A stretch of 64,000 nucleotides of DNA from Thermoanaerobaculia bacterium (lineage in GTDB: Bacteria > Acidobacteriota > Thermoanaerobaculia > Multivoradales > JAGPDF01), in NCBI GenBank assembly GCA_046331385.1, contig JAXLQW010000001.1:384188-448187 (forward strand), read 5' to 3'. Below are positions 7,783 through 48,110 of the stretch, piece after piece. Below the pieces are notes generated by a model. The model had not been told where the DNA came from. It saw only the letters and a program-made list of their open reading frames with translations, and made no database searches. A program made the translations under genes and the position numbers. Each line of letters starts with the position of its first letter. Positions within the stretch are counted from its first letter, which is position 1.

Positions 7783-9198
7783 TCAGGGCGCCGTCGGCGG
7801 CGGGAGGATCTGCCACTGCTCGCCCGCCGCGTCGGTGACCACGACGCGGCGGGCCACGGCGCCGGCGGGGAAGGCGAGCTCGCGCGTCGCCCCCGACGGT
7901 CCAGCGGCGAGCGGCGGGTCGACCGTCGACTCGATTTCGCCCTCCGCCGATTTCCAAGCTCGCGCCAAGCGCAAGACCGAAGCGGCGGAGGTCAACCGGC
8001 GGATCCGCCAGGCGGCAGCGCCGGGATCGACGAGCTCCGCCAGCCGGCTGCGGGCCGCCGGCGGGCTCCAGCCGTCGACGGCGGCCCGCGCTCGCGCCGC
8101 CAACACGGCGTCGGGCGTGCCGCTGCGCACCATGCGCGGCGAGGAGAGGCGTCGGCCGTCCTTCGCCCAGGTCACCACCAACGGGGTGAGCTCGCCCGGA
8201 GCGCCGGTCGGCGCGCGGAACCAGACGATCGAGCGTTTGCCGAAGTCGCGGATCTCGGCCGCCAGACGGGTGCCCGAGCCGACGATGGTGCCGCCGGTGC
8301 CTCGCAGCAGCGTCTGCCAGGGCAGGTAGGTCGGATCGAGCGCGCGCTCGACCGACGCCGAGTCGCCGAGCTTCGACTTGCGCGTCTTGGTCGACAGCAC
8401 CGGAAAGGTGACCCGCCGATCGCCCGTCGGACCTGGTTCGACCCTCACGTCGGCTTCGCGATCCAGGGTCTCGGATTTCTCGCTCGCCCTCCGGATCGCC
8501 ACCCCTTCGAGGATCCAACCGTAGCTGCCGACGGTCTCGCCGGCGCGGGCGAAGGCGCGCTCGGACTCGGTCTCCTGCGGCGAGGTCCAGCGCTCGAGCT
8601 CATCGGTCGGGATCGCGAAGGCGGAGATCGGCGCCAGCACCAGCCCGGGCGACTGTGTGGGCAGGGTGCCGAGCGCCGCGACCAGCCGATCGAGCGCCGC
8701 GACCGCGGCGCTTGGCGTGCCGGCGGCCGGAGTCGTCTCGGCGGCCGCCTGGCGGGCGATCTCCCCCAGCGCGGCCGCGAGCGCGGCGCGATCCCCGTGC
8801 TGCACCACGACCCGCGGCCAAGGGTCGGCCACCACGACGGTCGCGGAGCGGTAGCCGGCGAGGTCCTCGGCGGCGTCGGCGAGGGCCAGGGCCGCGGCGG
8901 CGCGGGTCGCGCCGTCGGCGAGACCGCCGTCGATCCAGACCAACACGTCGGCGGCCCGCGCCACCGACTCGACTCGGCTCACCGTGCGCGCCGAGCCGGC
9001 TTCGGTGACCAACAGGGCGCCGGGCGCGACCCCACCGGCGCGCGCCGCGGCCGGCAGGCCGGTGAAGTCGACCAGCACGCCGACCTCGCGCACCTCGACC
9101 TGCTCCTCGAACGACGGCGGCGCGGCGGCGGAAGCGGCCGAGGCGCAGGCCGCGAGGAGGAGAAGCGAAGCGGGAACGACGCGCGCAACGGCGATCAT
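7783..9198 (-). CDS. Secreted hypothetical protein, possibly VWA-like
   Basis: Signal-peptide-like N-terminus (MIAVARVVPASLLLLAACASAASA) then FEEQVEVREVGVLVDF, a pattern typical of acidobacterial VWFA-related proteins. Confidence 0.6.
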   Translation of the reverse strand: MIAVARVVPASLLLLAACASAASAAAPPSFEEQVEVREVGVLVDFTGLPAAARAGGVAPGALLVTEAGSARTVSRVESVARAADVLVWIDGGLADGATRAAAALALADAAEDLAGYRSATVVVADPWPRVVVQHGDRAALAAALGEIARQAAAETTPAAGTPSAAVAALDRLVAALGTLPTQSPGLVLAPISAFAIPTDELERWTSPQETESERAFARAGETVGSYGWILEGVAIRRASEKSETLDREADVRVEPGPTGDRRVTFPVLSTKTRKSKLGDSASVERALDPTYLPWQTLLRGTGGTIVGSGTRLAAEIRDFGKRSIVWFRAPTGAPGELTPLVVTWAKDGRRLSSPRMVRSGTPDAVLAARARAAVDGWSPPAARSRLAELVDPGAAAWRIRRLTSAASVLRLARAWKSAEGEIESTVDPPLAAGPSGATRELAFPAGAVARRVVVTDAAGEQWQILPPPTAP

Positions 9199-9290
9199 GG
9201 TCGGCTCCTGGAGCGGATCCACTCCATCGGATCTTCTGGAACGAATCCGCTTGCAAGACGCATGCTGCCGAACCGCGGATCGCGCGCCGG

Positions 9291-10091
9291 TCACGGCGCG
9301 ACCATCACCGGGCAGGGGGAGAGCTGGAGGAGCTTGTCGGCGACGCTGCCGACGAGGAGGCCGGAGAGGCCACCGCGGCCGCGGCGCCCGAGCGCCACTA
9401 GATCCGTCTTGTGGTGGGTGAGGTCGAGCAGCGCCGCGGCGGGCGAGCCTTGGACGACGTGTAGCGGCCAGTCGAGGCCGGGGGCCGCCGCTTGCAGGCC
9501 GCGCGTCAGCTCGTCCGCTTCGGGGCGCCACTCGCCGTGCGCCACGGCGACGGCGCGCACCTCGGCCGCCGGGAACCAGGTGGCGATCGCCGCCGCGGCG
9601 CCGAAGGCAGGCGGCGATCCGTCGAGGGCGACGAGCACCCGCCGCGGCGGGGCGGCGGGCGAGTCGCCGCGCACCACCACCACCGGCGACGGCGCGGTGC
9701 GCGTCACTTCGTTACTGACGCTGCCGAGCAGAGCGCGGCGGGCGCGCGAGCCGTGCTGCCCGACGACCAGCAGGCGGGGCTCGTCAAGCTCGCCGACGGC
9801 TTCGATCAGGGCTTCCGCCGGCAGCCAGCGACGAACCAGGGTCGCGATCGGCGGTCCGGCGGCGCGGATTGCGCTCGCGCGCCGGGCGATCCGCTCGCGC
9901 GCTGCCTCCTCGGAGAGAGCGACGATGTCCTCGGGCGGGCGCCCGAAGCCGTGCGGCGTGACGGCGGGCAGCGGCAGTCCGTGGACCAGGTGGAGCGTCA
10001 GGTCGCCGATGGCGCTCGCCGTGGCCACCGCCCAGCCGCAGGCGGCCTCGCTGCCGGGGCTGCCGTCCCAGCCGACGATCCAGTGCCTCAT
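9291..10091 (-). CDS. Universal stress protein, tandem UspA domains
   Basis: IVGWDGS...LLGSVSNEVTRTAPSPVVVVR and VLVALDGS...LVGSVADKLLQLSPCPVMV. Confidence 0.92.
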   Translation of the reverse strand: MRHWIVGWDGSPGSEAACGWAVATASAIGDLTLHLVHGLPLPAVTPHGFGRPPEDIVALSEEAARERIARRASAIRAAGPPIATLVRRWLPAEALIEAVGELDEPRLLVVGQHGSRARRALLGSVSNEVTRTAPSPVVVVRGDSPAAPPRRVLVALDGSPPAFGAAAAIATWFPAAEVRAVAVAHGEWRPEADELTRGLQAAAPGLDWPLHVVQGSPAAALLDLTHHKTDLVALGRRGRGGLSGLLVGSVADKLLQLSPCPVMVAP

Positions 10092-14837: not shown

Positions 14838-16403
14838 TCAATCGTAGATGCCGTCCGCGTACCAACGCCCCGTCGCGGCATCGCGGAAGATGCGGTAGAG
14901 ACCGCGATCGGCGAGCTCCACGTCCCAATATTCGCGCGTCACCGGCGCGTCGCTCCACCAAGCTTCCTCGACTCGCCAGGGGCCCGACGCGACGCGCACC
15001 GCGCCGTCGAGACGCGGGCGGCGATCGGCTCCCTCGCCGGCGAGCGAGCGCAGCTCGCGCGGCGCAGCGTTCGCGGCGTCGGCGGCAGCTGAGGGATCGG
15101 CGGCGTCGGCCGGCTCCGCGCCGAGCACCTCGATCTCGATCGCCGGGCGCAGCACACGCACCGCCAGCAGGCCGTGCGCGCGCTCAGGCAGGGCGGGCGA
15201 CAGGGCCGGCGGCGGCGACGGCTCGTAGGGCACCAGGACGGCGCGCTCCGGGCGATGACCATCGTCGACGCGCGGCGCGCCGACGCGGTCGCGACCGAGC
15301 AGCGCGAAGAGACGCGCGAGCGTGGTGGCGATGCGATCGGGCGACGGCGTGTCCGGCCCGAACAGGCCGAGCTGCGCGGCGCGCGGCCGGTCGGGATGGG
15401 CGGTGAAACGGAATCCGGCGACCGCCGCCCCGGGCGGTCGCTCCTCGAGCGCCAGACGGGTCACCGCGAGCAGCGTCTTGGCCTCGCGGGTCGGGGCGGG
15501 CAACGCGACCGAGCGTTCGTCGTGGCCGGCGGGCTCGAGCGCCAGCGCGAGGTCGAGCCGTGCGCAGCCGAGCCCGTGGGTCGCCAGGCGCTGGCAGAGC
15601 CGGTCGAGCGCCGCGCGCGCCAGGAAGAGGAAGGGCTCGATCGTGGCGAGCGGCCACTCGAGCTCGAGCCCCTCCTGGAAATCGGGCGGCGGCAGGCGCG
15701 GCAGGAGCGGGTGGGGATCGAGGCCGCGCGCCGCGCGGTGGAGCGCACCGCCGACTTCGCCCAGCCGGCTGACGATCTCGGCGGCCGGCAGGCGGGCGAA
15801 GTCGCCGATCGACCGCACCCCCCAACGCTCGAGAGTCGCGGCGAGATCGACCTCGGGGGCGAGGCGGGCGAGCGGCAACGGCGCGAGGAACGCCGCCTCT
15901 TCGCCGGGCGGCACGACGGCCGGCGGGCGCGGCGCGTCGGCGGCCACCCGGGCCGCGAGCTTGCTGCCGGCGATCCCCACCCGCGCCGGCAGGGCGATGC
16001 GCCGCGTCGCGTCGGTGAGCAGCTCGGCCAGGCGCCGTTCGGGATCGGCGTCGCGCAGGCGGCGGGCGACGCCGTCGACGTCGAGGAAGACCACCCCTTC
16101 GCCGGCCTGCTCGACCCGCGGCGAGAAACTCTCGGCGACTTCGAGCAGCGCTTCGCCGGCCGCGGCCTCGCAAAGCGGGTCGCGGCCGCGCGCCGCGAGC
16201 TTCGGCACCAGGGCGCGGGCCTGCGCGAGCGTCATGCCGGCGCGCACCCCGGCGCGGCGGGCGAAGCGGGTGGCGGCGACGACCCGCGCCTGCGGGCCGC
16301 TGCCGGCGAGCACCGCGAGCGCCGTCTCGGCAAGCTCGGGCTCGGCGCGCAGGCGCGCCGCGAGCGGGAAGAGCGGCACCGCGAGGCAGGCGAGGCGGGT
16401 CAT
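14838..16403 (-). CDS. imuB: Y-family polymerase-like accessory protein ImuB
   Basis: LACLAVPLFPL N-terminus without the catalytic acidic motif, GVRAGMTLAQARAL, FSPRVE, C-terminal GPWRVEEAWW...REYWDV; ATGA overlap with imuA. Confidence 0.85.
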   Translation of the reverse strand: MTRLACLAVPLFPLAARLRAEPELAETALAVLAGSGPQARVVAATRFARRAGVRAGMTLAQARALVPKLAARGRDPLCEAAAGEALLEVAESFSPRVEQAGEGVVFLDVDGVARRLRDADPERRLAELLTDATRRIALPARVGIAGSKLAARVAADAPRPPAVVPPGEEAAFLAPLPLARLAPEVDLAATLERWGVRSIGDFARLPAAEIVSRLGEVGGALHRAARGLDPHPLLPRLPPPDFQEGLELEWPLATIEPFLFLARAALDRLCQRLATHGLGCARLDLALALEPAGHDERSVALPAPTREAKTLLAVTRLALEERPPGAAVAGFRFTAHPDRPRAAQLGLFGPDTPSPDRIATTLARLFALLGRDRVGAPRVDDGHRPERAVLVPYEPSPPPALSPALPERAHGLLAVRVLRPAIEIEVLGAEPADAADPSAAADAANAAPRELRSLAGEGADRRPRLDGAVRVASGPWRVEEAWWSDAPVTREYWDVELADRGLYRIFRDAATGRWYADGIYD

Positions 16404-17194
16404 GGCGCGGGCAGCAGCGGGTCGCGGCAGGCGAGCTCGGCGGCGCGCGGCGCGGCGAGCGCGTTGCGGCGCTCGCGCTCGAGCACCAGACGCGCCGAGC
16501 GCGCCGCGAGCAGCCGCGGCTCGCGCCCGGCGCCGAGCCAGACCGGGCGTTCGCGTTCGAGCGCCAGCACGGTCGAGGCGGCGGTGCCGGTGGCGCGGTA
16601 GGGCGAGGCGACGACGAGCGCGACGCGTTCGCCGCGGGCGGCGTGCGCCAGCCGCAGCCACTGCGCCTCCGCCCCGCGGCCGCCGGCGACCGGCGGCGGC
16701 CCCAGGTCGAGCACGCACAGGGCGAAGCCGCCGGCGAGGATCGCCTCGCTCGCCGCGAGCGCCTGCTTCAGGTGGCGCGGGCGGGTCCAGAGCAGGCGGG
16801 CGAGATCCACGCCGCAGGCCGCCGCCTGCTGCGGGTCGAGGTTGTCGCCGAGATCGACCAGCGCCGCGTTCCAGCCGCCGCGGGTGGCTGCGGCGAGCAG
16901 CTCGAGCACCAGGGCGAAACGGCCGCTCGAGCGCCCGGCGACCAGCTCGGCGAGCTCGCCGCGCGGCAACCCGCCAGGGAGCAGGCGCCCGAGGGGAACG
17001 AAGCGGGCGGTGGCGGCGAGGGTCTCGTCGCCCGGACGGGGCGCGTCGACGAGCTCGCGCGCCGTGCGCACCCGCCCGCCGAGCGGCAGGCGCAGCCCCT
17101 CGACCAGCGTCCGCAGGGGAGCCGGCGCCGGCCGTGGAGAGGGTGCCGGGAGCGCCGCGGGCTCGAGTTCCGGCCAAGAGAGAGGTTCCGCCAT
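16400..17194 (-). CDS. imuA: RecA-like ImuA protein
   Basis: LPGGLPRGELAEL, degenerate P-loop SSGRF, ALVDLGDNLDP, GVDLARLLW; directly upstream of imuB. Confidence 0.8.
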   Translation of the reverse strand: MAEPLSWPELEPAALPAPSPRPAPAPLRTLVEGLRLPLGGRVRTARELVDAPRPGDETLAATARFVPLGRLLPGGLPRGELAELVAGRSSGRFALVLELLAAATRGGWNAALVDLGDNLDPQQAAACGVDLARLLWTRPRHLKQALAASEAILAGGFALCVLDLGPPPVAGGRGAEAQWLRLAHAARGERVALVVASPYRATGTAASTVLALERERPVWLGAGREPRLLAARSARLVLERERRNALAAPRAAELACRDPLLPAP

Positions 17195-17203
17195 CGCGGC
17201 TCC

Positions 17204-17233
17204 AAGATAGGGCGTAAAAAAGGCGTAAGTCAA
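17204..17233 (-). promoter_or_regulatory. imuA promoter with embedded direct-repeat operator candidate
   Basis: Minus strand TTGACT-N18-TATCTT; spacer holds TTACGCC-TTTT-TTACGCC (plus strand GGCGTAA at 17211-17217 and 17222-17228). Confidence 0.6.
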
Positions 17234-17272
17234 GGGCGAATCCGCCCCCCCGGCGTGCGAAGATCGAGAGCG

Positions 17273-18472
17273 ATGAAGATCGTCGACGTGGCGGTGGTGG
17301 GCGGCGGGATCGTCGGCCTGGCAACCGCGCGGGCGCTCGCCCGGGAAGGGCGCTCGGTGGTCGTCCTCGAGGCCGAGGAGCGGGTCGCCACCCATCAGAC
17401 CGGCCACAACAGCGGGGTGATCCACTCCGGGCTCTACTACCGGCCCGATTCCGAGAAGGCCCGCACCTCGACCGCCGGCCGCCGGGCGCTCTATCGCTAT
17501 CTCGAGGAGCGCGGCATCGCGCACGAGCGTTGCGGCAAGCTGGTGGTGGCGCTCGGCCCGGAGGAGCTGCCGCGCCTCGACGAGCTCGAGCGCCGCGGGC
17601 GGGCCAACGGCATCGCCGGGCTCGTCCGGCTCGCCGCCGGCGAGCTGGCGCGCTACGAGCCGCACGTGGCCGGGATCGCCGGTCTCTGGGTGCCGGAGAC
17701 CGGGATCGTCGACTACCGCCAGGTGGCGCGCGCCTTCGCCGAGGACATCGCGGCGGCGGGGGGCGAGGTGAAGACCGGCGCGCGGCTGCTCGCCGTCGCG
17801 CCCGACGGCACGAGCGACCGCCTCGCGACCGCCGCCGGCGAGGTCGCCTGCCGTCTGCTGGTCAACTGCGCCGGCCTCGAATGCGATCGGGTGGCGCGCC
17901 TGGCGGGGCTCGACCCGGAGGTGCGCATCGTCCCCTTCCGCGGCGACTACTACGACCTCGTCCCCGAGCGCCGTGGCCTGGTGCGCAACCTCATCTATCC
18001 GGTCCCCGATCCGGCGCTGCCCTTCCTCGGCGTCCACTTCACCCGCCGGATCTCGGGCGAGATCGAAGCCGGACCCAACGCGGTGCTCGCCTGGAAGCGC
18101 GCCGGCTACCACCGGGCGAGCTTCTCGTTCGCCGACGCCGCCTCGACGCTCGCCTTCCCGGGTTTCTGGCGCATGGCGCCGCGCTATCTCGGCGTCGGGT
18201 TGGCCGAGCTGCGCCGCGCCTGGAGCCGGCGGGCGTTCGTCGCCGAGCTGCGCCGCCTGCTGCCCGAAATCCGTGACGCCGACGTCGCGCCAGCCGGTTG
18301 CGGCGTGCGCGCCCAGGCGGTCGACCGGCAAGGCCGGCTGCTCGACGACTTCGCCATCGTCGAGGCGCCGCGCGGCGTGCACGTGCTCAACGCCCCGTCG
18401 CCCGGGGCCACGGCCTCGCTGGCGATCGGCGAGACCATCGCCCAGCGCGCCCGCGCCCGCCTCGACGCCTGA
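17273..18472 (+). CDS. lhgO: L-2-hydroxyglutarate oxidase
   Basis: VVGGGIVG, HQTGHNSGVIHSGLYY, FRGDYY, IYPVPDP, LGVHFT, GPNAV, NAPSPGATASL. Confidence 0.92.
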   Translation: MKIVDVAVVGGGIVGLATARALAREGRSVVVLEAEERVATHQTGHNSGVIHSGLYYRPDSEKARTSTAGRRALYRYLEERGIAHERCGKLVVALGPEELPRLDELERRGRANGIAGLVRLAAGELARYEPHVAGIAGLWVPETGIVDYRQVARAFAEDIAAAGGEVKTGARLLAVAPDGTSDRLATAAGEVACRLLVNCAGLECDRVARLAGLDPEVRIVPFRGDYYDLVPERRGLVRNLIYPVPDPALPFLGVHFTRRISGEIEAGPNAVLAWKRAGYHRASFSFADAASTLAFPGFWRMAPRYLGVGLAELRRAWSRRAFVAELRRLLPEIRDADVAPAGCGVRAQAVDRQGRLLDDFAIVEAPRGVHVLNAPSPGATASLAIGETIAQRARARLDA

Positions 18473-18512
18473 GGCCGGCGCGGCCTCTTCGGGGCGCCGC
18501 AAGAAATCGGCA

Positions 18513-18689
18513 GAAAAATAGGGACAGGCACCAATTTCGGTCTCGTCGGCTCCATCGAAGCGATGGTCAGGATGGCTGAGAAATTGGTGCCTGTCCCTAT
18601 TTTTCCGAGAAAGAGAAAAAGGCTCGCTTAGGGAAAGGACGCTGGCTGGAGAATTGGTGACAGGCACCGATTCTCAGGCACCGATTCTC
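18513..18689. repeat. REP/REPIN-like inverted-repeat cluster
   Basis: Perfect 26-bp IR GAAAAATAGGGACAGGCACCAATTTC (18513-18538 / 18580-18605); hairpin GAGAATTGGTG-ACAGG-CACCGATTCTC (18649-18675); 14-bp tandem CAGGCACCGATTCT x2 (18661-18688). Confidence 0.8.
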
Positions 18690-20704: not shown

Positions 20705-21538
20705 ATGGGCTGGCGGAGAACGACACGGATCTACGGGCGGCTGACGCGCGCCCTGGGGTACTCCTTCGTCGCCTATGGCGGCGCCCTGCTCAGCGGCTGG
20801 TTGCTGGCGCCCTGGCCGCGCGCGAGCGCGCGCTGGCAGATGCGCAGCTTCCAGTTCTGGTCGCGCGCTCTGGTGCGAGTCTTCGGCGTCCGCCTGACGG
20901 TCGTCGGCGAGCCGCCGCGCCCACCCTTCTTCCTGGTCGCGAACCACCTCTCGTACGTCGACATCGTGGTGCTCGGCACGCAGTTGCCGTGCGTTTTTGT
21001 CGCCAAGGCGGAGATCGACCGCTGGCCGGTCTTCGGCGCCATCTGTCGGGTGGTCAACACGATCTTCATCGACCGCAAGTTGAAGCGCGACGTGCCGCGC
21101 GCCATCGCGCTCATCCGCGAGGCGCTCGCGGTCGGCAAGGGGATCGTGGTCTTCGCCGAGAGCACTTCGAGCGCCGGCGCCGAGGTCATGCCGTTCCGCT
21201 CGCCGCTGCTCGACCTGCCGGTCAAGATGGGTCTGCCGGTGCACTACGCGGTGCTCGGCTACCGCACGCCGGAGTTCGCGCCGCCGGCCTTCTCGACCGT
21301 CTGCTGGTGGGGCAACGCGCCATTCGCGCCGCACGTCAAGGAATTCCTCGCCCTGCCGAGGGTCGAGGCCCGCCTGGTCTTCGGTGACCAGCCGGTGGCG
21401 ATCGCCGACCGCAAGCAGCTCGCCGAGCGACTGCGCAGCGAAGTCGCGGCGCGCTTCGAGCCGACGGTCGGCGCCGAGGAGCTCGCCAAGTACCGCCCGC
21501 CTTGGCGCGAAGACATCGACGAATTCGCCGGCGAGTGA
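20705..21538 (+). CDS. Lysophospholipid acyltransferase (PlsC/OlsA-like)
   Basis: NHLSYVD (HxxxxD), FVAKAEI, FIDR, FAESTSS. Confidence 0.88.
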   Translation: MGWRRTTRIYGRLTRALGYSFVAYGGALLSGWLLAPWPRASARWQMRSFQFWSRALVRVFGVRLTVVGEPPRPPFFLVANHLSYVDIVVLGTQLPCVFVAKAEIDRWPVFGAICRVVNTIFIDRKLKRDVPRAIALIREALAVGKGIVVFAESTSSAGAEVMPFRSPLLDLPVKMGLPVHYAVLGYRTPEFAPPAFSTVCWWGNAPFAPHVKEFLALPRVEARLVFGDQPVAIADRKQLAERLRSEVAARFEPTVGAEELAKYRPPWREDIDEFAGE

Positions 21539-21585: not shown

Positions 21586-22110
21586 AAGAAAGGCTCGGTT
21601 AGAGACCCTACGGTTCCATCCTCGCGAACCCTGGGCCGGCTCGATCCCAGCCGACACCAGCTCTCGCCTGGGAGTGTGGGCTCACCGCGCGCCCTCGTGA
21701 ACTGGCGGGTGGCTCGGCTGGGCGAGGCTGGAAGTGCGGGTTTCCTTTTTCCCCAGGGTGAGCTTTTCTTCGCAGGTTGCTGGCAGCTCGAGCTCAGCGG
21801 ACACCAGCTCTCGCCTGGGAGTGTGGGCTCACCCCGCGCCCTCGTGAACTGGCGGGCGGCTCGGCTGGGCGAGGATGGAAGTGCGGGCGTCTTTTTTCCC
21901 TAGGTGAGCTTTTCTTCGCAGGTTGCTGGCAGCTCGGCCTCAGCGGACACCAGCTCTCGCCTAGGAGTGTGGGCCTCTCTCGCGCCCTCGTGAACTGGCG
22001 GGCGGCTCGGCTGGGCGAAGCTGGAAGTGTGGGCCTCCTTTTCCCTAACCAGATCCTTTTCTTCTTTTTCTTGCTGTGTTTTCTTCTTTTCTTCTATCTC
22101 TACTGTTTCG
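21586..22110. repeat. Modular ~146-147 bp tandem repeat array, locus 1 (3 units), ending in a pyrimidine tract
   Basis: GACACCAGCTCTCGCC at 21653, 21800, 21946; GCCCTCGTGAACT at 21691, 21838, 21984; GGTGAGCTTTTCTTCGCAGG at 21757, 21903. Confidence 0.9.
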
Positions 22111-22132: not shown

Positions 22133-24703
22133 TCAGTCGAGGTATCGCCGTTTGAGGAGGCGGAGGAGCTCGCGCAGTGTCGTCGGGCGATGGCCGCTCT
22201 GGGCGTTTTCTTCACCGATCTCGAAGGCGAGGCGCCACTGCTCGAAGAGGGTCCGGTAGGCGGCGATCAGGCTCGCGCCGGGCTCGTAGATGTGGGTCGC
22301 TTCGGAGGTCACGCCGTTGAGCTCGAGAATCTTCAGGTTGCGCCCCTGCTGGAAGTCCTCGGTCGAGGGCACGCGCACGTCGTAGCGCCCGAAGAAGAAG
22401 CCCTCGAAGCCGCGGCTGATTTCGTCGATCCGACGGCGCAGCGCCTCGGTGGCGAGCGCCCGGCCGTCGCGGAAGATCGTGCCGCGGCAGTGGTTGCCGA
22501 TCTCGACCAGCTGCACGGGAACGTCGGACGCCGGGACCTCGCTCAGGCGGTGCGAGTTCTTCTCGAGATAGAACCTCGCCATGCACACCGCACGCTGGTC
22601 GGCGAGAATCAACTCCTCGAGCGTTCGCACGCCGTCGCCGCGCACAACCGGGAACTGCTTGCGCGTGATCGAGAAGATGCGGCCTTCGGCCTCCCGCGGG
22701 CGGCGCACGTAGAAGACGCCGAACTCCTCGCCGGGGACGTACTCCTGCAGAATCACCGGGCCCGCGTTCTCCTCGAGGTGCAGGCGGATCTCGTCGTGGC
22801 TACGCGCCACCGCCACGCCCGTGCCGCGCTCGCCGACGTCCGGCTTGAGCACCACCGGCAGCTCGAGAGCCAAGTCGGTCATCATCGCGCGCGCGGCGGC
22901 CAGGCGCGACTCGAGATCGGCGTGCGGCTCGAGCCGGGCGTAACGCGCCAGCGCCTCGGGGGACGCGGAGAGTCCGGCGAGGATGCCGCTCTTCGACTCC
23001 TCGACGAAACCGCCGGCGGGGATCGCCGGATTGGCGGCGGTGAAGACCGTCAGACTCTTGTGGCGCCAAGCGAGGCGGAGGATCTGGGCGAAGACGGGGA
23101 TCTGGAACAACCAGAGCGGCCAGAACTCCCAGCGCCGCAAGCGCTCGACCTTCGACCGCAGCATCCGGCGGCCCCGCCAGGTGCAGGCCGGGATCACCAG
23201 GTGGAAGAGAACGAGCAGGAGCACGAGCAGCAGGGCGATGCCCGGCAGGGCCCAGCGTTCGTAGGTCGCGAGCAGCCCGAGGAGCGTCTTGCCCGCGAGC
23301 GCCGAGAGTCCGACCAGGATCGGCGTCCAGAGCACCGCCGCGAGCAGGAAAGCGAGGAGCAACATCGGCAGGCGCACGTGGAGCACGCCGGCGGCGAAGA
23401 AGAGCGGCAGGCGGCTGCCGGGGATGAAGCGCGAGATCAGGATGACCTTCATCCCTTCGCGGCGGAACCACTCCGAGCTCGCCTCGAGGGTCGCCGGCTT
23501 GACCATCCACTTGAACGGCGCGCGCGCCAACGCCGGGCGCCCGAGCCAGCGTCCGGCGGCCACCAGCAGCAGATCGCCGACCACGATGCCCACCAGACAG
23601 GCGAGCGTCGCCTCGGGAAAGGCGAGGGTGCCATGTGAGACCAGCAGACCGCCGGCGAGGCAGGCCAGGTCCTCGGCGAGAAAAGTGGCGAGCGCCAGCA
23701 GGGACAGCAGGATCAGCAGGGTCACGCCGCGCGCCCGCGGCGGACGGATCTTGTCGAGCGCGAGCGCCGAGCGCGCCTGGCGGTCGCTCGGGGCGGTGGC
23801 GCGGGTGCGCGCCGCGCCCGAATCGACCGCCGCGAGGAAGGCGGAGATGCGCGTGGCCGCGAGGCCCGGTTGCTGGAAGAAGAGGAAGTGCCCGCCGGGG
23901 ACGATCTCGAGCTCCGCCTGCGGCACGATGCGCGCGTGCTCGTGCGCGGCGGCGACCGGCACGAGTCCGTCGCGTTCGCCGTGCAGGATGAGCGTCGGCC
24001 CGCCCCAGGCGCCGAGCAGACCGCGCAGCGGTCTTTGATCGGCGGCGGTGAAATTGCGCGCGTAGCCGAGATCGAGCGGCTGGCGGTCGAGCAGGCCGAA
24101 GTGAGGCACGAGCTGGTGCAGCCCCCAGACCAAGCCATACTGCACGTCGTAGAGCAGGTGGTTCAGGCGGTAGTCGCCCAGCAGCTCGAGCTCCTGGACG
24201 CCGATTGCCGAGAAGAGGGTGAGCGAGCGCACCCGCTCCGGATGACTTCCGGCGAGCTCGATCGCCGCGCCGCCTCCCTGGCTCACCGCCACCAGGTCGA
24301 CCGGCCCCGCGACCGGCGGCTCGACCGCGGCGAGGAAGTCGGCGAGCGACTCGGCCTCGGCGCGAAACGAGGCGTCCGGAAGGCCGCGACTCGAGGCGCC
24401 GAACTCCGGCAGGTCGGGGGCCAGCACGCGGCGGTCGCGGGCGAGCTCGCGGGCGAGATCGAGGACCGAGGCGCCGCTGCCGGGCGCGCCGTGGAGCAGC
24501 AAGACCGACGGACGAGACGAGAGCGAACCGAGGTCGCGGTAGGCGAGTCGCATCCGGTGCTCCGGCCGCGCCCCGCGGCCACGCTCGGGAAGCTCGAGAG
24601 TGCGCTGGTCGGCGGCCGGCGCGTTCCCGGGCCAGAAGGCGGTCGTGAGGTGCGAGGCCGCGAGCAGCACCATCCAGGCGAGCGCGAAACGGTGGCGGCG
24701 CAT
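22133..24703 (-). CDS. Fusion: alpha/beta hydrolase + DedA/VTT membrane domain + ATP-grasp ligase
   Basis: LLHGAPGS, AVSQGG, HGERDGLVP, GGHF (hydrolase); FLAEDLAC...LISRFIPGSR (DedA); VLKPDVGERG, LQEYVPG, GDGVRTLEELI, ILELNG (ATP-grasp). Confidence 0.85.
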   Translation of the reverse strand: MRRHRFALAWMVLLAASHLTTAFWPGNAPAADQRTLELPERGRGARPEHRMRLAYRDLGSLSSRPSVLLLHGAPGSGASVLDLARELARDRRVLAPDLPEFGASSRGLPDASFRAEAESLADFLAAVEPPVAGPVDLVAVSQGGGAAIELAGSHPERVRSLTLFSAIGVQELELLGDYRLNHLLYDVQYGLVWGLHQLVPHFGLLDRQPLDLGYARNFTAADQRPLRGLLGAWGGPTLILHGERDGLVPVAAAHEHARIVPQAELEIVPGGHFLFFQQPGLAATRISAFLAAVDSGAARTRATAPSDRQARSALALDKIRPPRARGVTLLILLSLLALATFLAEDLACLAGGLLVSHGTLAFPEATLACLVGIVVGDLLLVAAGRWLGRPALARAPFKWMVKPATLEASSEWFRREGMKVILISRFIPGSRLPLFFAAGVLHVRLPMLLLAFLLAAVLWTPILVGLSALAGKTLLGLLATYERWALPGIALLLVLLLVLFHLVIPACTWRGRRMLRSKVERLRRWEFWPLWLFQIPVFAQILRLAWRHKSLTVFTAANPAIPAGGFVEESKSGILAGLSASPEALARYARLEPHADLESRLAAARAMMTDLALELPVVLKPDVGERGTGVAVARSHDEIRLHLEENAGPVILQEYVPGEEFGVFYVRRPREAEGRIFSITRKQFPVVRGDGVRTLEELILADQRAVCMARFYLEKNSHRLSEVPASDVPVQLVEIGNHCRGTIFRDGRALATEALRRRIDEISRGFEGFFFGRYDVRVPSTEDFQQGRNLKILELNGVTSEATHIYEPGASLIAAYRTLFEQWRLAFEIGEENAQSGHRPTTLRELLRLLKRRYLD

Positions 24704-43055: not shown

Positions 43056-44558
43056 GTGACCTTGCCCGGGCCCTCGATTCCCGCCGACCGGCTCACCGTG
43101 CGCCGCGACCTCGCGCCGGCGGCGGGGGAGTGCGTCCTCTACTGGATGACCTCGGCGCGGCGGCTGGAGTGGAACTACGCTCTCGATCGGGCGCTCGACT
43201 GGGCGCGAGCGCTCGACCGACCGCTCGTGGTGCTCGAGGCGCTGCGCTGCGACTACCCCTGGGCGAGCGCCCGCCTGCACCGCTTCGTCCTCGACGGCAT
43301 GGCGGAGAACGCCGCGCGGGCGGCGGCGAGCGGCATCGCCTACCACCCTTACGTCGAGCCCGCGCGCGGCGCCGGAGGCGGGCTGCTGGCGGCGCTGGCG
43401 GAGCGCGCCGCGGTGGTCGTCGGCGACGACTTCCCGGCCTTCTTCCTGCCGCGCATGACGGCGCGCGCCGCGGCGATCGTCCCCTGCCGCTTCGAGACCG
43501 TCGACGCGAACGGGCTGCTGCCGCTCGCCTCCTCGACCGCCGCGTACCCGACGGCCTACGCGTTCCGCCGCTTCCTGCAGGCAAACCTCAAGCGCCATCT
43601 GGCGGCGCTTCCCGAGCCGGCGCCGCTCGCGGCGGCGGACCTGCCGCGCGGCGGACGGGTCCCGGAGGCGATCCAGCGTCGCTGGCCCGCCGCGAGCCCG
43701 TCCCTGCTCGCGGGCGACGCCGCGGAGCTCGCGGCCTTGCCGATCGATCGCTCGGTCGCGCCGGTCGCCGACCGCCGCGGCGGCGCGGTCGCGGCGCGGG
43801 AGCGGCTCGAGAGCTTCGTCTCCGCCGGCCTCGCGCGCTACGCCGAGGAGCGCAATCACCCGGACGCCGACGCCGGCAGCGGGCTCTCGCCGTACCTGCA
43901 TTTCGGGCACCTGTCGACGCACGCAGTGCTGGCGCGGCTGGCGCGCGAGTTCCACTGGTCGGTCGAGGATCTGCCCGAGCGCGGCGTCGGCGCGCGCCAG
44001 GGCTGGTGGCGGATGCCGCCCGCGGCCGAGTCCTTCCTCGACGAGCTGGTGACCTGGCGCGAGCTCGGGTACCACTTCTGCGCCCGGCGGCCGGACGATC
44101 ACGACGCCTACGAGTCGCTCCCGGCCTGGGCGCGGGCGACGCTCGAGAAGCACGCCGGCGATCCTCGTCGCTCTACCTATGATCTCGCCGAGCTCGAGGG
44201 CGCCGCCACGCACGATCCGCTTTGGAACGCGGCGCAGCGCGAGCTCGTCACCACCGGCCGGCTGCACTCCTATCTGCGGATGCTCTGGGGCAAGAAGATC
44301 CTCGAGTGGTCGAGCGATCCGCGCTCGGCGCTGGCGACCATGTTCCACCTCAACGACAAGTACGCCCTCGACGGCCGGGACCCCAACTCGACGAGCGGCA
44401 TCCTCTGGTGCCTCGGTCGGTTCGACCGTCCGTGGGCGCCGGAACGGGCGATCTTCGGCGTGGTGCGTTACTTGTCGAGCGACAACACGGCGCGCAAGCT
44501 GAGGCTGAAGGAGTACCTGAAGAGGCACGCCCCAGGCGCCGAAGGCGCAACCTCCTAG
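43056..44558 (+). CDS. phr: Deoxyribodipyrimidine photolyase, class II-type
   Basis: YWMTSARR...NYAL, SGLSPYLHFG, ELVTWREL, YLRMLWGKKILEW, NDKYALDGRDPNS. Confidence 0.9.
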   Translation: MTLPGPSIPADRLTVRRDLAPAAGECVLYWMTSARRLEWNYALDRALDWARALDRPLVVLEALRCDYPWASARLHRFVLDGMAENAARAAASGIAYHPYVEPARGAGGGLLAALAERAAVVVGDDFPAFFLPRMTARAAAIVPCRFETVDANGLLPLASSTAAYPTAYAFRRFLQANLKRHLAALPEPAPLAAADLPRGGRVPEAIQRRWPAASPSLLAGDAAELAALPIDRSVAPVADRRGGAVAARERLESFVSAGLARYAEERNHPDADAGSGLSPYLHFGHLSTHAVLARLAREFHWSVEDLPERGVGARQGWWRMPPAAESFLDELVTWRELGYHFCARRPDDHDAYESLPAWARATLEKHAGDPRRSTYDLAELEGAATHDPLWNAAQRELVTTGRLHSYLRMLWGKKILEWSSDPRSALATMFHLNDKYALDGRDPNSTSGILWCLGRFDRPWAPERAIFGVVRYLSSDNTARKLRLKEYLKRHAPGAEGATS

Positions 44559-44781
44559 GTGGGTGGGCTTGCGCTCCGCCCTCGTGAACTGGCTGGCTCG
44601 ACGGCGCGGGGCAAGAACGGCAAGCGTCCTTCTCCCCCAGGTGATCTTTTCTTCGCAGGATGGCGAAGGATCGGACTCCTCGGACACCAGCTCTCGCCTA
44701 GGAGTGCGGGCTGGCGCACCGCCCTCGTGAACTCGTGGCTGGCTCGACGGCGCGAGGCAAGAACGGCAAGCGTCCTTTTCC

Positions 44782-45723
44782 CTAGGTGTTAGTGCTCAAG
44801 AGGTTGTTGACTCGCGAGCAGGGTGGTTTTCTGCCGAGAGCGGTGTGAGGTCGGTGGAAATTGTAGCGGTGGAGGAAGGCTGGGAGTGCTTCTCGGCGTT
44901 GGCGAGAGGAGCAGTAGGGTCGAGCGTAGGCCCATTCCCGGAGGGCGGTCTGGATGAGCCTCTCGGCTTTGCCGTTGGTTCTTGGGGTGTAGGGCCGGGT
45001 GCGTAGGTGGCGGAGTTTGTAGCGCGTGCAGGCGCGTTGCATCTTCTTCGAGCGATAGCCGGTACCGTTGTCGGTGAGGATGCGCTGAGCCTCGATGCCG
45101 TGCTGTCGATACCAAGCGACCGCCCGGCGCAGGAAGCCCGCCACAGTGGCTCCCGTTTCGTCGGGCAAGACTTCCATGTAGGACAAACGACTGAAGTCGT
45201 CGATGGCGACATGAGCGTACTCCCAGCCGGCGCCGCGTTTTCGCCGACTCTGGTCGCCGTGGATGCGATGACCGATTCCGTCGATCCGGCCGAGCTTCTT
45301 GATGTCGAGGTGAATCAGCTCGCCGGGAGCCTGGCGCTCGTAGCGAATCACCGGGGGCTTCGGCTCGAGATCCCGAGCTCGCGACAGTTTGTGCCGCCGC
45401 AGGATTCGCCCCAAGGTGGAGCGTGGAATGCCGGTGAGCTCGGCCAGGGCTTGGGCGTTCAGCCGGTGTTGCCGGCGCAGGTGGATGGCCAGCTCCTCCC
45501 GGCTCAGGGAAAGCTTCCTAGGCGAGCGATGAGGCCGCGACGAGCGATCGAGCAACCCGCCCTCTCCTTCGTCGAGGAAGCGGCCAATCCACTTTCGCGC
45601 GGTCTGGCGGCTGACCCCCGCCGCGCGCGAAGCCTGGCCCATGGGCCAGGCTTCCTGCAAAACACGACGACAAAGCAAGGCTCGACTTTCCGGGCAAGTC
45701 TTTGCTCTTCTATGGATGTTCAT
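44782..45723 (-). CDS. IS481-family DDE transposase
   Basis: MNIHRRAKT, PGELIHLDIKKLG, AIDDFSR, LTDNG, NGKAER; GGAGG RBS; stop TAG lies in the target duplication. Confidence 0.95.
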   Translation of the reverse strand: MNIHRRAKTCPESRALLCRRVLQEAWPMGQASRAAGVSRQTARKWIGRFLDEGEGGLLDRSSRPHRSPRKLSLSREELAIHLRRQHRLNAQALAELTGIPRSTLGRILRRHKLSRARDLEPKPPVIRYERQAPGELIHLDIKKLGRIDGIGHRIHGDQSRRKRGAGWEYAHVAIDDFSRLSYMEVLPDETGATVAGFLRRAVAWYRQHGIEAQRILTDNGTGYRSKKMQRACTRYKLRHLRTRPYTPRTNGKAERLIQTALREWAYARPYCSSRQRREALPAFLHRYNFHRPHTALGRKPPCSRVNNLLSTNT

Positions 45724-45808
45724 CCGGGCTGCCTCCGTGGTTTGCCAGCTCTTCGACAAAGCCAGCCTGCCACAGCAGTCCGGGTGAACAACCTATTGAG
45801 CAGTCACA
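44787..45808 (-). mobile_element. IS481-family insertion sequence (1022 bp) with 6-bp CCTAGG target duplication
   Basis: Imperfect 25-bp TIRs TGTTAGTGCTCAAGAGGTTGTTGAC / TGTGACTGCTCAATAGGTTGTTCAC (21 of 25 identical); CCTAGG at 44781-44786 and 45809-45814; visibly lower GC than flanks. Confidence 0.95.
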
Positions 45809-46074
45809 CCTAGGTGAGCTTTTCTTCGCAGGATGGCGGCACCTCGAACGACGCCGACACCAGCTCTCGCCTAGGAGTGCGGGCTGGCGCACCGCCCTCG
45901 TGAACTGGCGACCGGTCGGCTTGGCGAGGCTGGAACTGCGAGGTGTCTTTTCTTCCCAGTCGAGCTTTTCCTCTCTGCGTGAACGCGCAATCGGCTCGGT
46001 CCCGCGAAGCTGGAGATTCCGGCGTCTTTTCCTTTTGACCGGGCCTTTGTTTCTTTCCTTCTTCTTCCTCTTGC

Positions 46075-46091
46075 TGAGAACCAGTTATCAT
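46075..46091 (+). promoter_or_regulatory. Candidate Fur/Zur-type operator overlapping a -10 element
   Basis: Imperfect palindrome TGAGAAC-CA-GTTATCA overlapping TATCAT (46086-46091), 6 nt before ATG 46098. Confidence 0.4.
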
Positions 46092-46097
46092 TAGAAC

Positions 46098-46814
46098 ATG
46101 GAGGCTGGGGAGGTGTCGGCGGGGGTGCTGGTCGAGTTGCGCGGCGTGTCGGTGGGGCACGGCGACGATGTCGCGCTTTCCGGCGTCGATCTCTCGGTCG
46201 CGGCCGGCGACCGCCTGGCGATCCTCGGTCCCAACGGCGGCGGCAAGAGCACCCTGGTGCGCGCCGTTCTCGGGTTGGTCCGGCCAGGCTCGGGGTCGGT
46301 GGTCTGGTCGCGGCCGCGGCGCGCTCTCCGGCTGGGCTACGTGCCGCAGTTCCCGGCCTTCGACCGCTCCTTTCCGATCCGGGTGCGCGACCTGATCGCC
46401 CACGGTCGCCTGCGCCACGGTTCCGGCGACCGGCGCGGCGGCGGTGGCGCCGAGGAGGCGGTGATCGCTCTCTGGCTCGAGCGGCTCGACCTCGGCGCGC
46501 TCGGCGACGCCTACCTGACGGAGCTCTCGGGGGGAGAGCTCAAGCGGGCGCTGATCGCTCGCGCGCTGGTGGGGGAGCCGGAGTTGTTGGTGCTCGACGA
46601 GGCGACCGCTTCGCTCGACGAATCCTCGCGGCGCGCGTTCTGGCGTCTGCTCGGAGAGCTGCCGGCGTCGACCGCCATCCTGCTCGCCACCCACGATCTC
46701 GCGCCCGGAACCTTCGCGCCCACCCGTGCCCTGCTCGTCGACCGCACGGTGGCGGACCTGCCGCTCGACGGGCTCCACACCCATCCCCTGCTCTGCGGGC
46801 ACGGACATGACTGA
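46098..46814 (+). CDS. Metal (Zn/Mn) ABC transporter ATP-binding protein (ZnuC-like)
   Basis: GPNGGGKST, GYVPQ, LSGGE, LVLDEAT, THDL, C-terminal CGHGHD. Confidence 0.9.
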   Translation: MEAGEVSAGVLVELRGVSVGHGDDVALSGVDLSVAAGDRLAILGPNGGGKSTLVRAVLGLVRPGSGSVVWSRPRRALRLGYVPQFPAFDRSFPIRVRDLIAHGRLRHGSGDRRGGGGAEEAVIALWLERLDLGALGDAYLTELSGGELKRALIARALVGEPELLVLDEATASLDESSRRAFWRLLGELPASTAILLATHDLAPGTFAPTRALLVDRTVADLPLDGLHTHPLLCGHGHD

Positions 46815-47647: not shown

Positions 47648-48022
47648 TCAGCCGCGCGCGCAGTCGGCGCAGCGGCCGTGGAGAGTGATGTCGTGCGATT
47701 CGAGCCGGAAGCCGCGCGGCGTCAGCCGGGTCAGGTCCGGCGGGCATGAGGCGACTTCGAAGACCCGATCGCAGACCCGACAGCGAAAGTGATGATGATG
47801 GTGCTTGCCGGCGATCTCGTAGCGCGACGGCTCGCCGGGCAACGCCACCTCGGCCAGCCATCCCTCGCCGACGAGAGCTTTGAGATTGCGATAAATCGTC
47901 GCAAGCCCTAGGCTCGGAACCCGACGTTGCGCTGAGCCGAGCACCTCGCTCGGCGACAGCGGGCGGTCGGCGCGCTCGAAAGCGTCGCGGATCGCTTGTC
48001 GCTGGACGGTGCGCCGCGTCAT
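47648..48022 (-). CDS. Fur family transcriptional regulator, probably Zur-like
   Basis: TVQRQAI, LGLATIYRNL, HHHHFRCRVC, terminal GRCADC; next to metal ABC genes. Confidence 0.9.
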   Translation of the reverse strand: MTRRTVQRQAIRDAFERADRPLSPSEVLGSAQRRVPSLGLATIYRNLKALVGEGWLAEVALPGEPSRYEIAGKHHHHHFRCRVCDRVFEVASCPPDLTRLTPRGFRLESHDITLHGRCADCARG

Positions 48023-48110
48023 GGCGAAATTCTAGCGCTGCTCGCGGGGCCGCTTCCGATTCCGGACAGAGGCGGGAGCCGCGGTTCGGCGGCGAGGGAG
48101 AGGAGCGAGG

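Follow-up and report, generated by a model that had tools for sequence, protein, structure and literature searches.

A probable lineage-private family of small mosaic interspersed repeats as a landing pad for an IS481-family insertion sequence

Two arrays of an ~146 bp repeat in a 64-kb window (the whole stretch of DNA that was analysed) probably belong to a family of small interspersed repeats that is non-coding, mosaic and private to its lineage, resembles BIME/BOX elements and serves as a landing pad for an insertion sequence (IS) of the IS481 family. In kind, the repeats would be REP/BIME, BOX, ERIC or Correia-like objects, with a sequence that appears unrelated to those. To our knowledge, small interspersed repeats have been well studied in Proteobacteria and Firmicutes and hardly in deep uncultured lineages, and this family is an example from a poorly sampled high-GC lineage, though it opens no long-standing question. 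The host, probably one of the Acidobacteriota, is 72 % GC, and the named nearest protein homologues come from Acidobacteriota MAGs and share no more than 63–64 % identity. Copies were read from the window (two loci) and from the ends of two Logan contigs (two loci), giving about nine units, all from one lineage.

The first array (locus 1, 21606–22100) is made up of three head-to-tail units at 21606–22044, with periods of 147 and 146, and a CT-rich tail. The in-register units lie at 21606/21610–21752, 21753–21898 and 21899–22044 (spacings 147 and 146), and the TRF call is 21639–22047, period 146, 2.8 copies and 90 % matches. On the 5′ side is an acyltransferase gene (+ strand, stop codon at 21536–21538) and on the 3′ side, in convergent orientation, an alpha/beta-hydrolase-VTT gene (− strand, stop codon at 22133–22135). 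An earlier note on this DNA had described three tandem units with these periods between convergent genes, and this was borne out by TRF, nhmmer and the gene calls. The features of locus 1 are as follows.

21606–21752, + strand: unit 1, module A degenerate in its left part, alpha-type module B intact (nhmmer with the unit profile, E=2.4e-37; alignment)
21753–21898, + strand: unit 2, module B alpha-type (nhmmer E=2e-43; TRF period 146)
21753–21819: module A of unit 2, bounded by CCAGGG/CCTGGG
21899–22044, + strand: unit 3 (nhmmer E=2e-42)
21899–21965: module A of unit 3, perfect CCTAGG at both bounds (21899 and 21960)
22046–22100, + strand: tail, terminal motif followed by a microsatellite, 84 % pyrimidine
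22046–22065: terminal motif TAACCAGATCCTTTTCTTCT in the tail
22056–22095: CTTTTCTT microsatellite in the tail (TRF: 8-bp repeat, 5.2 copies)

The basic unit of ~146 bp comprises two modules, each with a CCTAGG-like palindrome at its bounds, as the earlier note had proposed, and the two CCYRGG sites per unit alternate in spacing between ~61 and ~85 nt. In module A (~67 bp), a variable core is enclosed by terminal inverted repeats of 10 bp. The self-complementary ends previously claimed for this shorter module are real; they span 10 bp including CCTAGG and, as CCTAGGTGAG and CTCGCCTAGG, have 83 % of cells paired over six copies, compared with 27–50 % when the partner is slid. Module B (~85 bp) includes a GGGC-N9-GCCC mini-palindrome, in which the 9-mer is hypervariable, together with the invariant motif GCCCTCGTGAACT; its right half exists in at least two versions. 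The units run head to tail, and the arrays close in short-form units, the terminal motif and a CT-rich tract.

The second array (locus 2, 44547–46072) is collinear and is split by a 1,022-bp IS481-family element. Its order is a partial B, A-B, A-B and one short unit, and it is a single array, not two separate loci.

44547–44635, + strand: partial first unit, end of module A and a beta-type module B (nhmmer E=5.7e-21)
44636–44786, + strand: unit 2, module B beta-type; the final CCTAGG became the left target-site duplication (nhmmer E=7.7e-42; junction analysis)
44787–45808, − strand: IS481-family insertion sequence, 1,022 bp, inserted in the array and not part of the repeat
44782–45723, − strand: IS481 transposase (Pfam LZ_Tnp_IS481 2.9e-22, rve 1.7e-16)
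45809–45954, + strand: unit 3, recombinant (nhmmer E=1.9e-40; collinear alignment; segment identities)
45955–46032, + strand: short-form unit (local alignment to the unit; nhmmer match 45978–46030)
46028–46072, + strand: CT-rich tail, 87 % pyrimidine

In unit 3 of this locus, the left half of module B is locus-2-type and the right half is locus-1-type (alpha), and in the short-form unit an internal deletion places the left part of module A immediately next to the right half of module B. The photolyase gene beside the array (43056–44558, identified by Pfam DNA_photolyase) has its TAG stop codon inside the CCTAGG at 44554–44559 of the first unit; hence, the repeat supplies the stop codon of this gene. 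Beyond the tail lie an AT-rich Fur/Zur-like box and then the start of znuC at 46098.

It had been claimed in the earlier note that invariant blocks alternate with variable segments and recur 23 kb away, and both parts were confirmed. The three invariant blocks recur at 44.5–45.9 kb (the third with 2 mismatches in one copy), where shuffles expect 0 matches. The alternation of blocks is non-random (P=0.0005), since the longest invariant run covers 17 columns and shuffles average 7. The cores share 27–29/30 and 13/13 positions in every unit pair, and between unit types the variable segments share 9–14/23 and 1–4/9. Since the 29-nt and 14-nt blocks are near-invariant amid near-random neighbours, selection or frequent conversion would appear to act on the blocks, and ‘neutral’ is then not the whole story. 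The same pattern could be that of a DNA-level protein-binding array, in which the blocks, which have palindromic cores and include the CCTAGG and GGGC-N9-GCCC palindromes, are sites for a dimeric protein (nucleoid-associated, a recombinase or a restriction-modification component) and the near-random segments of constant length between them are spacers. This explanation would also fit the avoidance of CTAG elsewhere in the window, and there is a precedent in the REP/BIME elements, which bind several proteins (PMC2817692). We nevertheless regard it as rather improbable, as a Pfam search of the window revealed no candidate binding protein near either locus, both loci with a known upstream flank sit 3′ of genes and not in regulatory regions, and short-form and degenerate units drop blocks without obvious consequence.

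Units resemble each other more within one array than across arrays, and among them segments have been exchanged and internal parts gained and lost. Under the preferred reading of a mosaic interspersed repeat, unequal recombination, slippage and gene conversion would lengthen, shorten and homogenise the arrays, and the family would persist as DNA that is selfish or nearly neutral, since it is tolerated in 3′ intergenic regions. A quite different route, which we consider a poor candidate, is that the units are nested, self-targeting miniature transposons, with module A (ends GG...CC) and perhaps module B inserting in the TA or CTAG of CCTAGG and regenerating the flanks, such that arrays could expand through repeated insertion. 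The terminal inverted repeats of module A, the CCTAGG-like sequence at every module bound and the existence of short forms that lack internal parts would all be expected of such elements. However, the units all point the same way, with ~90 % identity between neighbours over A+B, and hence whole-unit duplication fits better than repeated insertion. Furthermore, no B-B junction (an empty site) was seen among the available units, the single transposase available comes with unrelated ends, and the end pattern of module A is absent from the GTDB representatives. Neither a mobilising enzyme nor a target duplication or an inverted repeat at the array ends was found for the two loci in the 64-kb window.

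At least four loci of the family are available, two in the window and two at Logan contig ends, and their flanks are unrelated. The earlier description as a dispersed family is therefore backed by copies outside the window. In one of these contigs (L258), the short-form unit occurs twice and the array closes with the same terminal motif as the locus 1 tail. This array adjoins the apparent 3′ end of a convergent gene, as judged by eye. Both arrays with a known upstream flank lie just downstream of a same-strand gene. No head homology was detected between loci, the head alignments scoring below the shuffle mean, and tail homology between the two window loci was not above that of shuffles.

Searches of wider collections were negative. 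When 185,579 GTDB representative genomes were scanned with four patterns, exact or gapped, there were either 0 matches or single chance matches in unrelated taxa, as checked by BLAST and nhmmer, and the pattern CCTAGGTGAG-N50-62-CTCGCCTAGG was found in none of these genomes. Only chance matches were recovered from IMG/VR and from a metagenome scan with a loose pattern, and there was no match in the PLSDB plasmids. The window itself contains no tRNA or tmRNA. The loci retrieved by a photolyase search (≤64 % identity) and those of two acyltransferase homologues (59 % identity) were not syntenic where examined and were without the repeat. The label ‘undescribed’ given to the family in the earlier note thus holds as far as searched, in Rfam, the GTDB representatives, plasmids and translated public proteins.

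The IS in locus 2 has imperfect TGT...ACA terminal inverted repeats, with ~19 of the first 22 positions matching, and its ends, TGTTAGTGCTCAAGAGG..., are unrelated to the ends of the repeat modules. It is flanked by a 6-bp duplication of CCTAGG (44781–44786 and 45809–45814), and taking the element out restores a normal unit junction. The element belongs to the IS481 family on the basis of the LZ_Tnp_IS481 and rve domains, the TGT...ACA ends and the CCTAGG duplication, which fits the IS481 consensus target of NCTAGN (PMC3053399), and plasmid relatives are annotated as IS481 family transposase. Exact-protein look-ups with the transposase (two start choices) and with the ABC ATPase returned no record.

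Copies of this IS that are 100 % identical were found in three other sequencing runs, and two Logan contigs hold the identical IS next to further, diverged copies of the repeat family. In one of them (L259), the IS lies at the other CCTAGG of a unit and, in the other (L258), at CCTAGT and in the opposite orientation. Hence, though the IS itself is an ordinary member of the IS481 family, all three resolved insertions are within one repeat family, in its CCTAG(G/T) sites. Related ISs (78–85 %) found elsewhere also have NCTAGN targets, but in contigs without the repeat. In the window, CTAG is depleted, with 22 occurrences observed against 68 expected from a Markov estimate and 163 from composition, and seven of the nine CCTAGG sites are inside the repeats. 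It is because the repeat concentrates NCTAGN targets in a CTAG-depleted genome that we see the family as a probable IS481 landing pad. It appears that a repeat of the host can serve an IS481-type element as the principal site of insertion simply by concentrating the otherwise depleted CTAG. The view of REPs as hot spots for ISs would thereby be extended to a further IS family with a different targeting logic. With low probability, the repeat family has co-evolved with the IS481 element and is a safe harbour in a CTAG-purged genome. A practical consequence is that short-read assemblies of the host are interrupted by the repeat and the IS, as the Logan contigs end in the repeat and at IS ends. 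An origin of the repeat as an IS481-derived MITE was considered and dropped.

The GC content by codon position is flat (0.60–0.71) in all six frames of the arrays, compared with a GC3 of ~0.9 for the genes of the window, and this together with unit periods of 146/147, which are not multiples of 3, indicates that the arrays are non-coding. We find it scarcely credible that they are cryptic coding repeats, with small ORFs of the MIRU kind that are coupled to the genes on either side, or that they form a CRISPR-like array. Long open frames do run across the array and the photolyase stop codon does lie in the first CCTAGG, but in addition to the unit length and the lack of a codon-position GC signal, six-frame translation of two units found no relative among 5.8 billion proteins. 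As to CRISPR, the conserved parts exceed the variable ones in length, adjacent variable parts are alike (20/23) and do not match the rest of the window, and Pfam identified no cas domains in the window; the view taken in the earlier note, that the array is not CRISPR-like, is supported. A small ORF led by an SD sequence on the minus strand was dropped, the start codon differing between loci, and G-quadruplexes, a CsrA-sponge (GGA) array and a LexA box were likewise considered and dropped. The possibility that the two arrays bound a 23-kb island was dropped because the interval carries prfB, lnt and kup and its GC content is uniform.

The array would be transcribed as the 3′UTR of the upstream gene, to judge from position only, because the locus 2 array begins inside the photolyase stop codon. 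In such a 3′UTR, 3′-end formation or mRNA stability may be influenced, as a side effect, by the C/U-rich tail and by the imperfect hairpins of the plus strand. A stronger version, that the units are a selected structured RNA (a 3′UTR stabiliser, a processing site, a Rho-entry site or a regulatory RNA) with blocks kept for RNA function, is unlikely. The folds that it would involve are the module-A hairpin, an A-right/B-right ‘alpha’ hairpin and the GGGC-N9-GCCC hairpin with a free loop. It is consistent with the position of the arrays on the strand of the upstream gene, starting at or just past the stop codon, and with the location of the hypervariable segments where loops would be. In the alpha-hairpin region the plus-strand z is ~0.6–1.2 below that of the minus strand in 4/4 copies, and some copies reach −2.0 to −2.5, and the paired ends of module A include compensatory-type changes. 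The changes seen in this helix are one G.C to U.A double, one wobble-to-Watson-Crick and one A to G that keeps G.U on the plus strand only. Two pairs are changed on both sides and, since 100 of 500 shuffles match that, the covariation is suggestive only.

Several findings weigh against a selected RNA. Whole-unit folding gave z from −0.96 to +1.31 on either strand, no better than shuffles, and the RNAalifold covariation terms were −0.32 and +1.4. The two longer inverted repeats, with arms of 10–11 bp that are 46–53 nt apart, are real but are retained inconsistently, with a plus-strand z of ~−2 in some copies and not in others; the alpha helix is broken in the beta-type unit, and z is ~−0.4 to +0.5 for U1b and U2b, where the background is −0.17±1.14. 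No canonical terminators or sigma-70-like promoters were present within the units, and a scan of the window against Rfam at gathering thresholds gave 0 matches, permissive settings adding two sub-threshold chance matches in the region. The stem that the earlier note saw as kept in the variable part is at chance level, as a perfect stem of ≥4 bp is present in 45 % of random 23-mers drawn from the window and the per-segment shuffle P values are 0.14–0.39 (Fisher combination ~0.27), and only its central TCG is invariant. The wider claim of conserved folding is therefore mostly unsupported, given units that fold like shuffles. A further suggestion, that as plus-strand RNA or single-stranded DNA the invariant stems display fixed-length hypervariable loops that, if transcribed in 3′UTR arrays, would be ‘programmable’ and have a sequence-specific role (as a decoy, guide or recognition element), is a very long shot. 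The loops so defined would have 23 nt in module A and 9 nt in module B. Among the three readings offered in the earlier note (a structured ncRNA, an ssDNA recombination substrate and a BOX/MITE-like element), the BOX/MITE-like one, a mosaic interspersed repeat, stands, resting on non-coding, dispersed, modular and recombinant copies, short forms and a shared terminal motif, and the structural argument from a conserved stem in the variable part does not.

Comparison with known systems places the family near the REP/BIME and BOX elements. The hallmarks of REP/BIME are a compact imperfect palindrome of ~20–40 bp (REP/PU), a RAYT (Y1 transposase) gene flanked by REPs and more than 100 copies per genome, and a conserved GTAG-type REP head is reportedly recognised by RAYT, as described by Nunvar in 2010 and Ton-Hoang in 2012. 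Like the REP/BIME of Enterobacteria and Pseudomonas, which are small extragenic mosaics found mostly 3′ of genes and are insertion targets for particular ISs (PMC1525189, PMC2817692, PMC3333891), the family is a small, non-coding, dispersed mosaic with imperfect inverted repeats that lies 3′ of genes and is an IS target. However, the array units have no sequence similarity to REP/BIME, their inverted repeat arms are widely spaced and do not form a compact palindrome (CCTAGG and GGGC-N9-GCCC are the only compact ones), and GTAG is absent from the unit strand, with CTAC only at the array edges (21608 and 22100). No RAYT gene was found among the ~45 window ORFs scanned with Pfam. The REPs inside a BIME alternate in orientation (PMC2817692), whereas here all units, in L258 as well as in both loci, follow one another head to tail on a single strand. 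REPs are known IS targets (PMC1525189) and ISPpu9, of the IS110 family, is among the REP-specific ISs described (PMC12288879), but the IS here differs from these in belonging to the IS481 family (DDE) and in its CTAG core.

The BOX elements of Streptococcus pneumoniae and S. suis (boxA-boxB(n)-boxC) are similar in having an internal part of variable copy number, apparently terminal modules, and variant or short forms, and in their occurrence between convergent genes and as 3′ extensions of operons; for BOX, a modular build, enrichment between convergent genes and co-transcription as a 3′ extension have been described (PMC3049150). They differ in that 146-bp two-module units are repeated here instead of the 45-bp boxB, a 3′ terminal motif is shared but no common 5′ head module was found, and the units are predicted to fold much less strongly than BOX with its tight stem-loops. 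Homology to BOX is in any case implausible because the host is a high-GC organism with its homologues in Acidobacteriota MAGs.

As in MITEs such as Correia, ERIC and RUP, module A at ~67 bp has terminal inverted repeats and identical short flanking sites. Unlike in MITEs, the terminal inverted repeats are those of module A only and not of the whole unit or array, the CCTAGG-like sites flanking both modules are a palindrome inside the inverted repeat itself, and the module is part of same-orientation tandem arrays of a larger unit; neither solo copies nor empty sites occur among the copies available, and no partner IS has matching ends. The MIRU of mycobacteria are 40–100 bp long and contain small ORFs that overlap neighbouring stop and start codons. 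The family shares with MIRU/VNTR the tandem intergenic arrangement in a high-GC genome, the orientation with respect to the neighbouring gene and the contact with a stop codon, but its units of 146/147 bp are without a coding signature.

The window carries two loci of a non-coding, dispersed and modular repeat family, the units of which have been duplicated, internally deleted and recombined, and the family is an insertion hot spot for an IS of the IS481 family. By TRF, the window has a single array of long period (21639-22047, period 146, 2.8 copies, 90 % matches), and a profile built on the units placed them as follows.

Repeat units located with the unit profile
21606/21610-21752, +, locus 1 unit
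21753-21898, +, locus 1 unit
21899-22044, +, locus 1 unit
44547-44635, +, locus 2 unit (partial)
44636-44781, +, locus 2 unit
45809-45954, +, locus 2 unit
45978-46030, +, locus 2 extra weak match

The three invariant blocks described in the earlier note were found exactly where it had placed them and again at locus 2 (chance expectation 0). Locus 1 does lie between convergent genes, with the stop codons of an acyltransferase gene at 21536-21538 (+) and an alpha/beta-hydrolase-VTT gene at 22133-22135 (-). As had been proposed, each unit consists of two modules, a module A of ~67 bp and a module B of ~85 bp split by two CCYRGG sites, and the alternation of invariant and variable segments is statistically real (longest invariant run 17 columns, mean in shuffles 7, P=0.0005). 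In every unit pair the core blocks match at 27-29 of 30 and 13 of 13 positions, and between unit types a 23-nt segment of module A (9-14 of 23) and the 9-mer in GGGC-N9-GCCC (1-4 of 9) are near-randomised. The right half of module B has two versions, alpha and beta, and module B of alpha-type units opens with a 14-bp motif, CTRGRAGTGYGGGC, that returns 60 nt later, close to the module's end (21668/21728, 21815/21875 and 21961/22021). Hence, the unit may have grown out of a shorter repeat of ~60 bp. Pyrimidine-rich tracts (84-87 % C+T) close both arrays, and the one at locus 1 holds an 8-bp CTTTTCTT microsatellite (TRF).

The halves of locus 2 are separated by a 1,022-bp element (44787-45808) with TGT...ACA inverted repeats, a perfect 6-bp CCTAGG duplication and a transposase with LZ_Tnp_IS481 and rve domains (Pfam). 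Excision of the element and one duplicate in silico gave a normal unit junction (TTTTCC-CTAGG-TGAGC), and the repaired array is collinear with locus 1 across ~363 bp (B, A-B, A-B). The two halves form a single array that the IS interrupts. In its third unit, module B has a left half of locus-2 type joined to a right half of locus-1 type (alpha); the adjoining units have the beta right half, and the fourth unit is a short form with an internal deletion. The array edges are more degenerate than the interiors; the heads at the two loci are unrelated, and the tails align no better than shuffles. A photolyase gene terminates in locus 2: the first CCTAGG there (44554-44559) contains its TAG stop codon, and its final ~12 bp can be aligned with the end of module A, and thus the repeat seems to have supplied the gene's last codons and stop.

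The IS is intact and has a GC content of 63 % versus 72 % for the window. It is multi-copy and probably recently active, as its transposase is 100 % identical on Logan contigs from three other runs (SRR31893907, SRR35651070 and SRR26348416). One Logan contig (L260) includes the IS alone and CCTAG. On another (L259), CCTAGG flanks the identical IS on both sides, and the site occupied is the A|B junction, the alternative CCTAGG within a unit. A third (L258) has the identical IS inverted, in a CCTAGT at the left edge of a diverged unit. All of the resolved insertions (3/3) are in CTAG sites of the repeat family. The IS481 target consensus is NCTAGN (PMC3053399), and the sites of ISs from other metagenomes that are 78-85 % identical agree with it, being also in NCTAGN (one side only on contig L263) and outside the repeat family. 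The window has far fewer CTAG sites than expected, 22 in 64 kb versus 68 (Markov estimate) or 163 (base composition), and seven of the nine CCTAGG sites are inside repeats. CTAG is also rare at two relatives' loci (L256 and L257, with 59 %-identical acyltransferase homologues), with 5 sites each in 20.8 and 13.1 kb. On the simplest reading, the IS obeys the usual target rule and, in the source host, the repeat family provides a large share of the targets. Several CTAG sites outside the repeats are apparently at gene ends.

The diverged copies on L258 and L259 raise the number of loci to four or more, in line with the dispersal claimed earlier, and a 3' terminal module recurs among them. The L259 unit shares 74-80 % identity with units of the window. 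The L258 unit, which reads GCTCTCGTGAACT, has an extended A core and no second CCTAGG; after it come two short-form units of ~55 bp, a terminal motif GAACCGATCCTTTTCTTCT nearly equal to the start of the locus-1 tail (TAACCAGATCCTTTTCTTCT) and, by eye, the apparent 3' end of a convergent gene. The family was absent from the 185,579 GTDB representative genomes, where two module-B patterns, the best-conserved 22-mer and a pattern restricted to the module-A inverted repeats gave 0 or chance-level single matches in unrelated taxa. It was also absent from IMG/VR and from PLSDB plasmids, and a screen of relatives' loci (those from the photolyase search and those of two acyltransferase homologues) did not reveal it. 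A Logan contig from SRR26348421 (L001), with an acyltransferase 100 % identical to that of the window, stops inside the first (29-nt) invariant block, equivalent to window position 21682, as expected because repeated sequence breaks de Bruijn assembly. Both the repeat and the IS fragment assemblies of the source organism.

The window is an ordinary chromosomal stretch (72 % GC) with housekeeping and transport genes identified using Pfam (prfB, lnt, kup, znuCB and a Fur-family regulator, glycosyltransferases, a TonB receptor and others). Its acyltransferase is on record on a contig of 4.52 Mb. The closest homologues of the acyltransferase are at most 63 % identical, the named ones being from Thermoanaerobaculia/Acidobacteria MAGs, and relatives of the photolyase are at most 64 % identical, so that the source would be a near-complete genome from a poorly sampled lineage, probably of the Acidobacteriota. 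An unusually AT-rich stretch, GTTATCATTAGAAC, at ~46079-46097, directly before the start of a znuCB-like ABC ATPase/ABC-3 permease pair (46098-47616), looks like a Zur/Fur box in native promoter sequence outside the repeat; the Fur-family regulator gene (47651-48031) is just downstream of the pair on the opposite strand. Six direct repeats of ~37 nt at 48321-49887, spaced 153-837 nt apart within a 1,130-residue ORF, are coding BNR/Asp-box (Sortilin-Vps10-like) protein repeats unrelated to the intergenic family. Three ORFs in regions of very high GC (78-80 %) encode uncharacterised proteins: for 16403-18673 (-; 757 residues) the sole match is a partial RecA domain (E=6.4e-11, residues 567-655), and its neighbours at 15093-16598 and 7786-9711 have no Pfam match.

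A coding repeat was rejected on the unit lengths of 146 and 147, on codon-position GC that is flat in all six frames (0.60-0.71; GC3 is ~0.9 in genes of the window), and on six-frame translations of two units, which have no relative among 5.8 billion proteins. The earlier note had set CRISPR aside, and the variable segments have no other match in the window, which also includes no cas domains. RAYT, integrase and reverse-transcriptase domains are likewise absent from the window (Pfam).

The note had also suggested a structured RNA. Rfam yielded no known RNA family, searches found no tRNA or tmRNA genes, and the units include no terminator-like or sigma-70-like sites. The stems described in the variable part of module A are present but not distinctive, as 45 % of random 23-mers from the window include a perfect stem of at least 4 bp; shuffle P values per segment were 0.14-0.39 for stem length and 0.14-0.46 for MFE, with a Fisher combination over four independent segment types (our own calculation) of ~0.27. 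On neither strand was the folding of whole units better than that of dinucleotide shuffles (z -0.96 to +1.31), and RNAalifold did not bear out covariation (terms -0.32 on the plus and +1.4 on the minus strand).

Two longer inverted repeats are real, however. The module-A ends (CCTAGGTGAG / CTCGCCTAGG) are self-complementary as reported, with 83 % of cells pairing versus 27-50 % for slid partners, and in alpha-type units A-right CCAGCTCTCGCC pairs with B-right GGCGAGGCTGG (11 bp, one bulge, by hand). When two extra copies, the L258 and L259 units, were included in the module-A comparison, the former had one G.C to U.A double change and a U.G to C.G improvement, the latter had an A to G change with pairing kept only as G.U on the plus strand, and one unit copy of the window (U1b) had ends, CCCAGG/CCTGGG, complementary to each other. 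Three or four mismatches are without compensation, and the both-sided change in two pairs was matched by 100 of 500 shuffles. Plus-strand folds of sub-regions reach z -2.0 to -2.5 in some copies versus a genomic background of -0.17 +/- 1.14, and only -0.4 to +0.5 in U1b and the beta-type unit. The inverted repeats may or may not reflect a selected fold of the units, and there is a slight lean to the plus strand.

Adjacent units are ~90 % identical versus 69-75 % for units of different loci, suggesting that the arrays would grow and be homogenised via unequal recombination, slippage and gene conversion. 3' intergenic regions would tolerate the family, which could persist there as selfish or near-neutral DNA, as argued for BOX, RUP and SPRITE (PMC3049150). 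Both arrays with a known upstream flank (2/2) are directly downstream of a same-strand gene, and may be co-transcribed as its 3'UTR; at locus 2, where the array starts in the stop codon, this could hardly be otherwise. C/U-rich, G-poor sequence can serve for Rho entry, and the imperfect plus-strand hairpins and a tail of this type could affect 3'-end stability or Rho entry. The main feature not fully explained by selfish or near-neutral persistence is that the blocks of 29 and 14 nt are conserved almost perfectly, and this keeps alive both an RNA function of the units and protein binding to the repeat DNA.

Among known repeats, BIMEs and BOX elements are closest in kind, and no sequence is shared with any family searched. 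The testable features that define REP/BIME, a compact palindromic unit, alternating orientation and a GTAG head, are absent from the family. Module A alone has MITE-like inverted repeats, and a partner IS, solo copies and empty sites were not found. The inserted element is a regular member of the IS481 family. The interest of the repeat is modest and lies mainly in its being a first example from the source lineage and in its being targeted, as a host repeat, by IS481 via its CTAG core.
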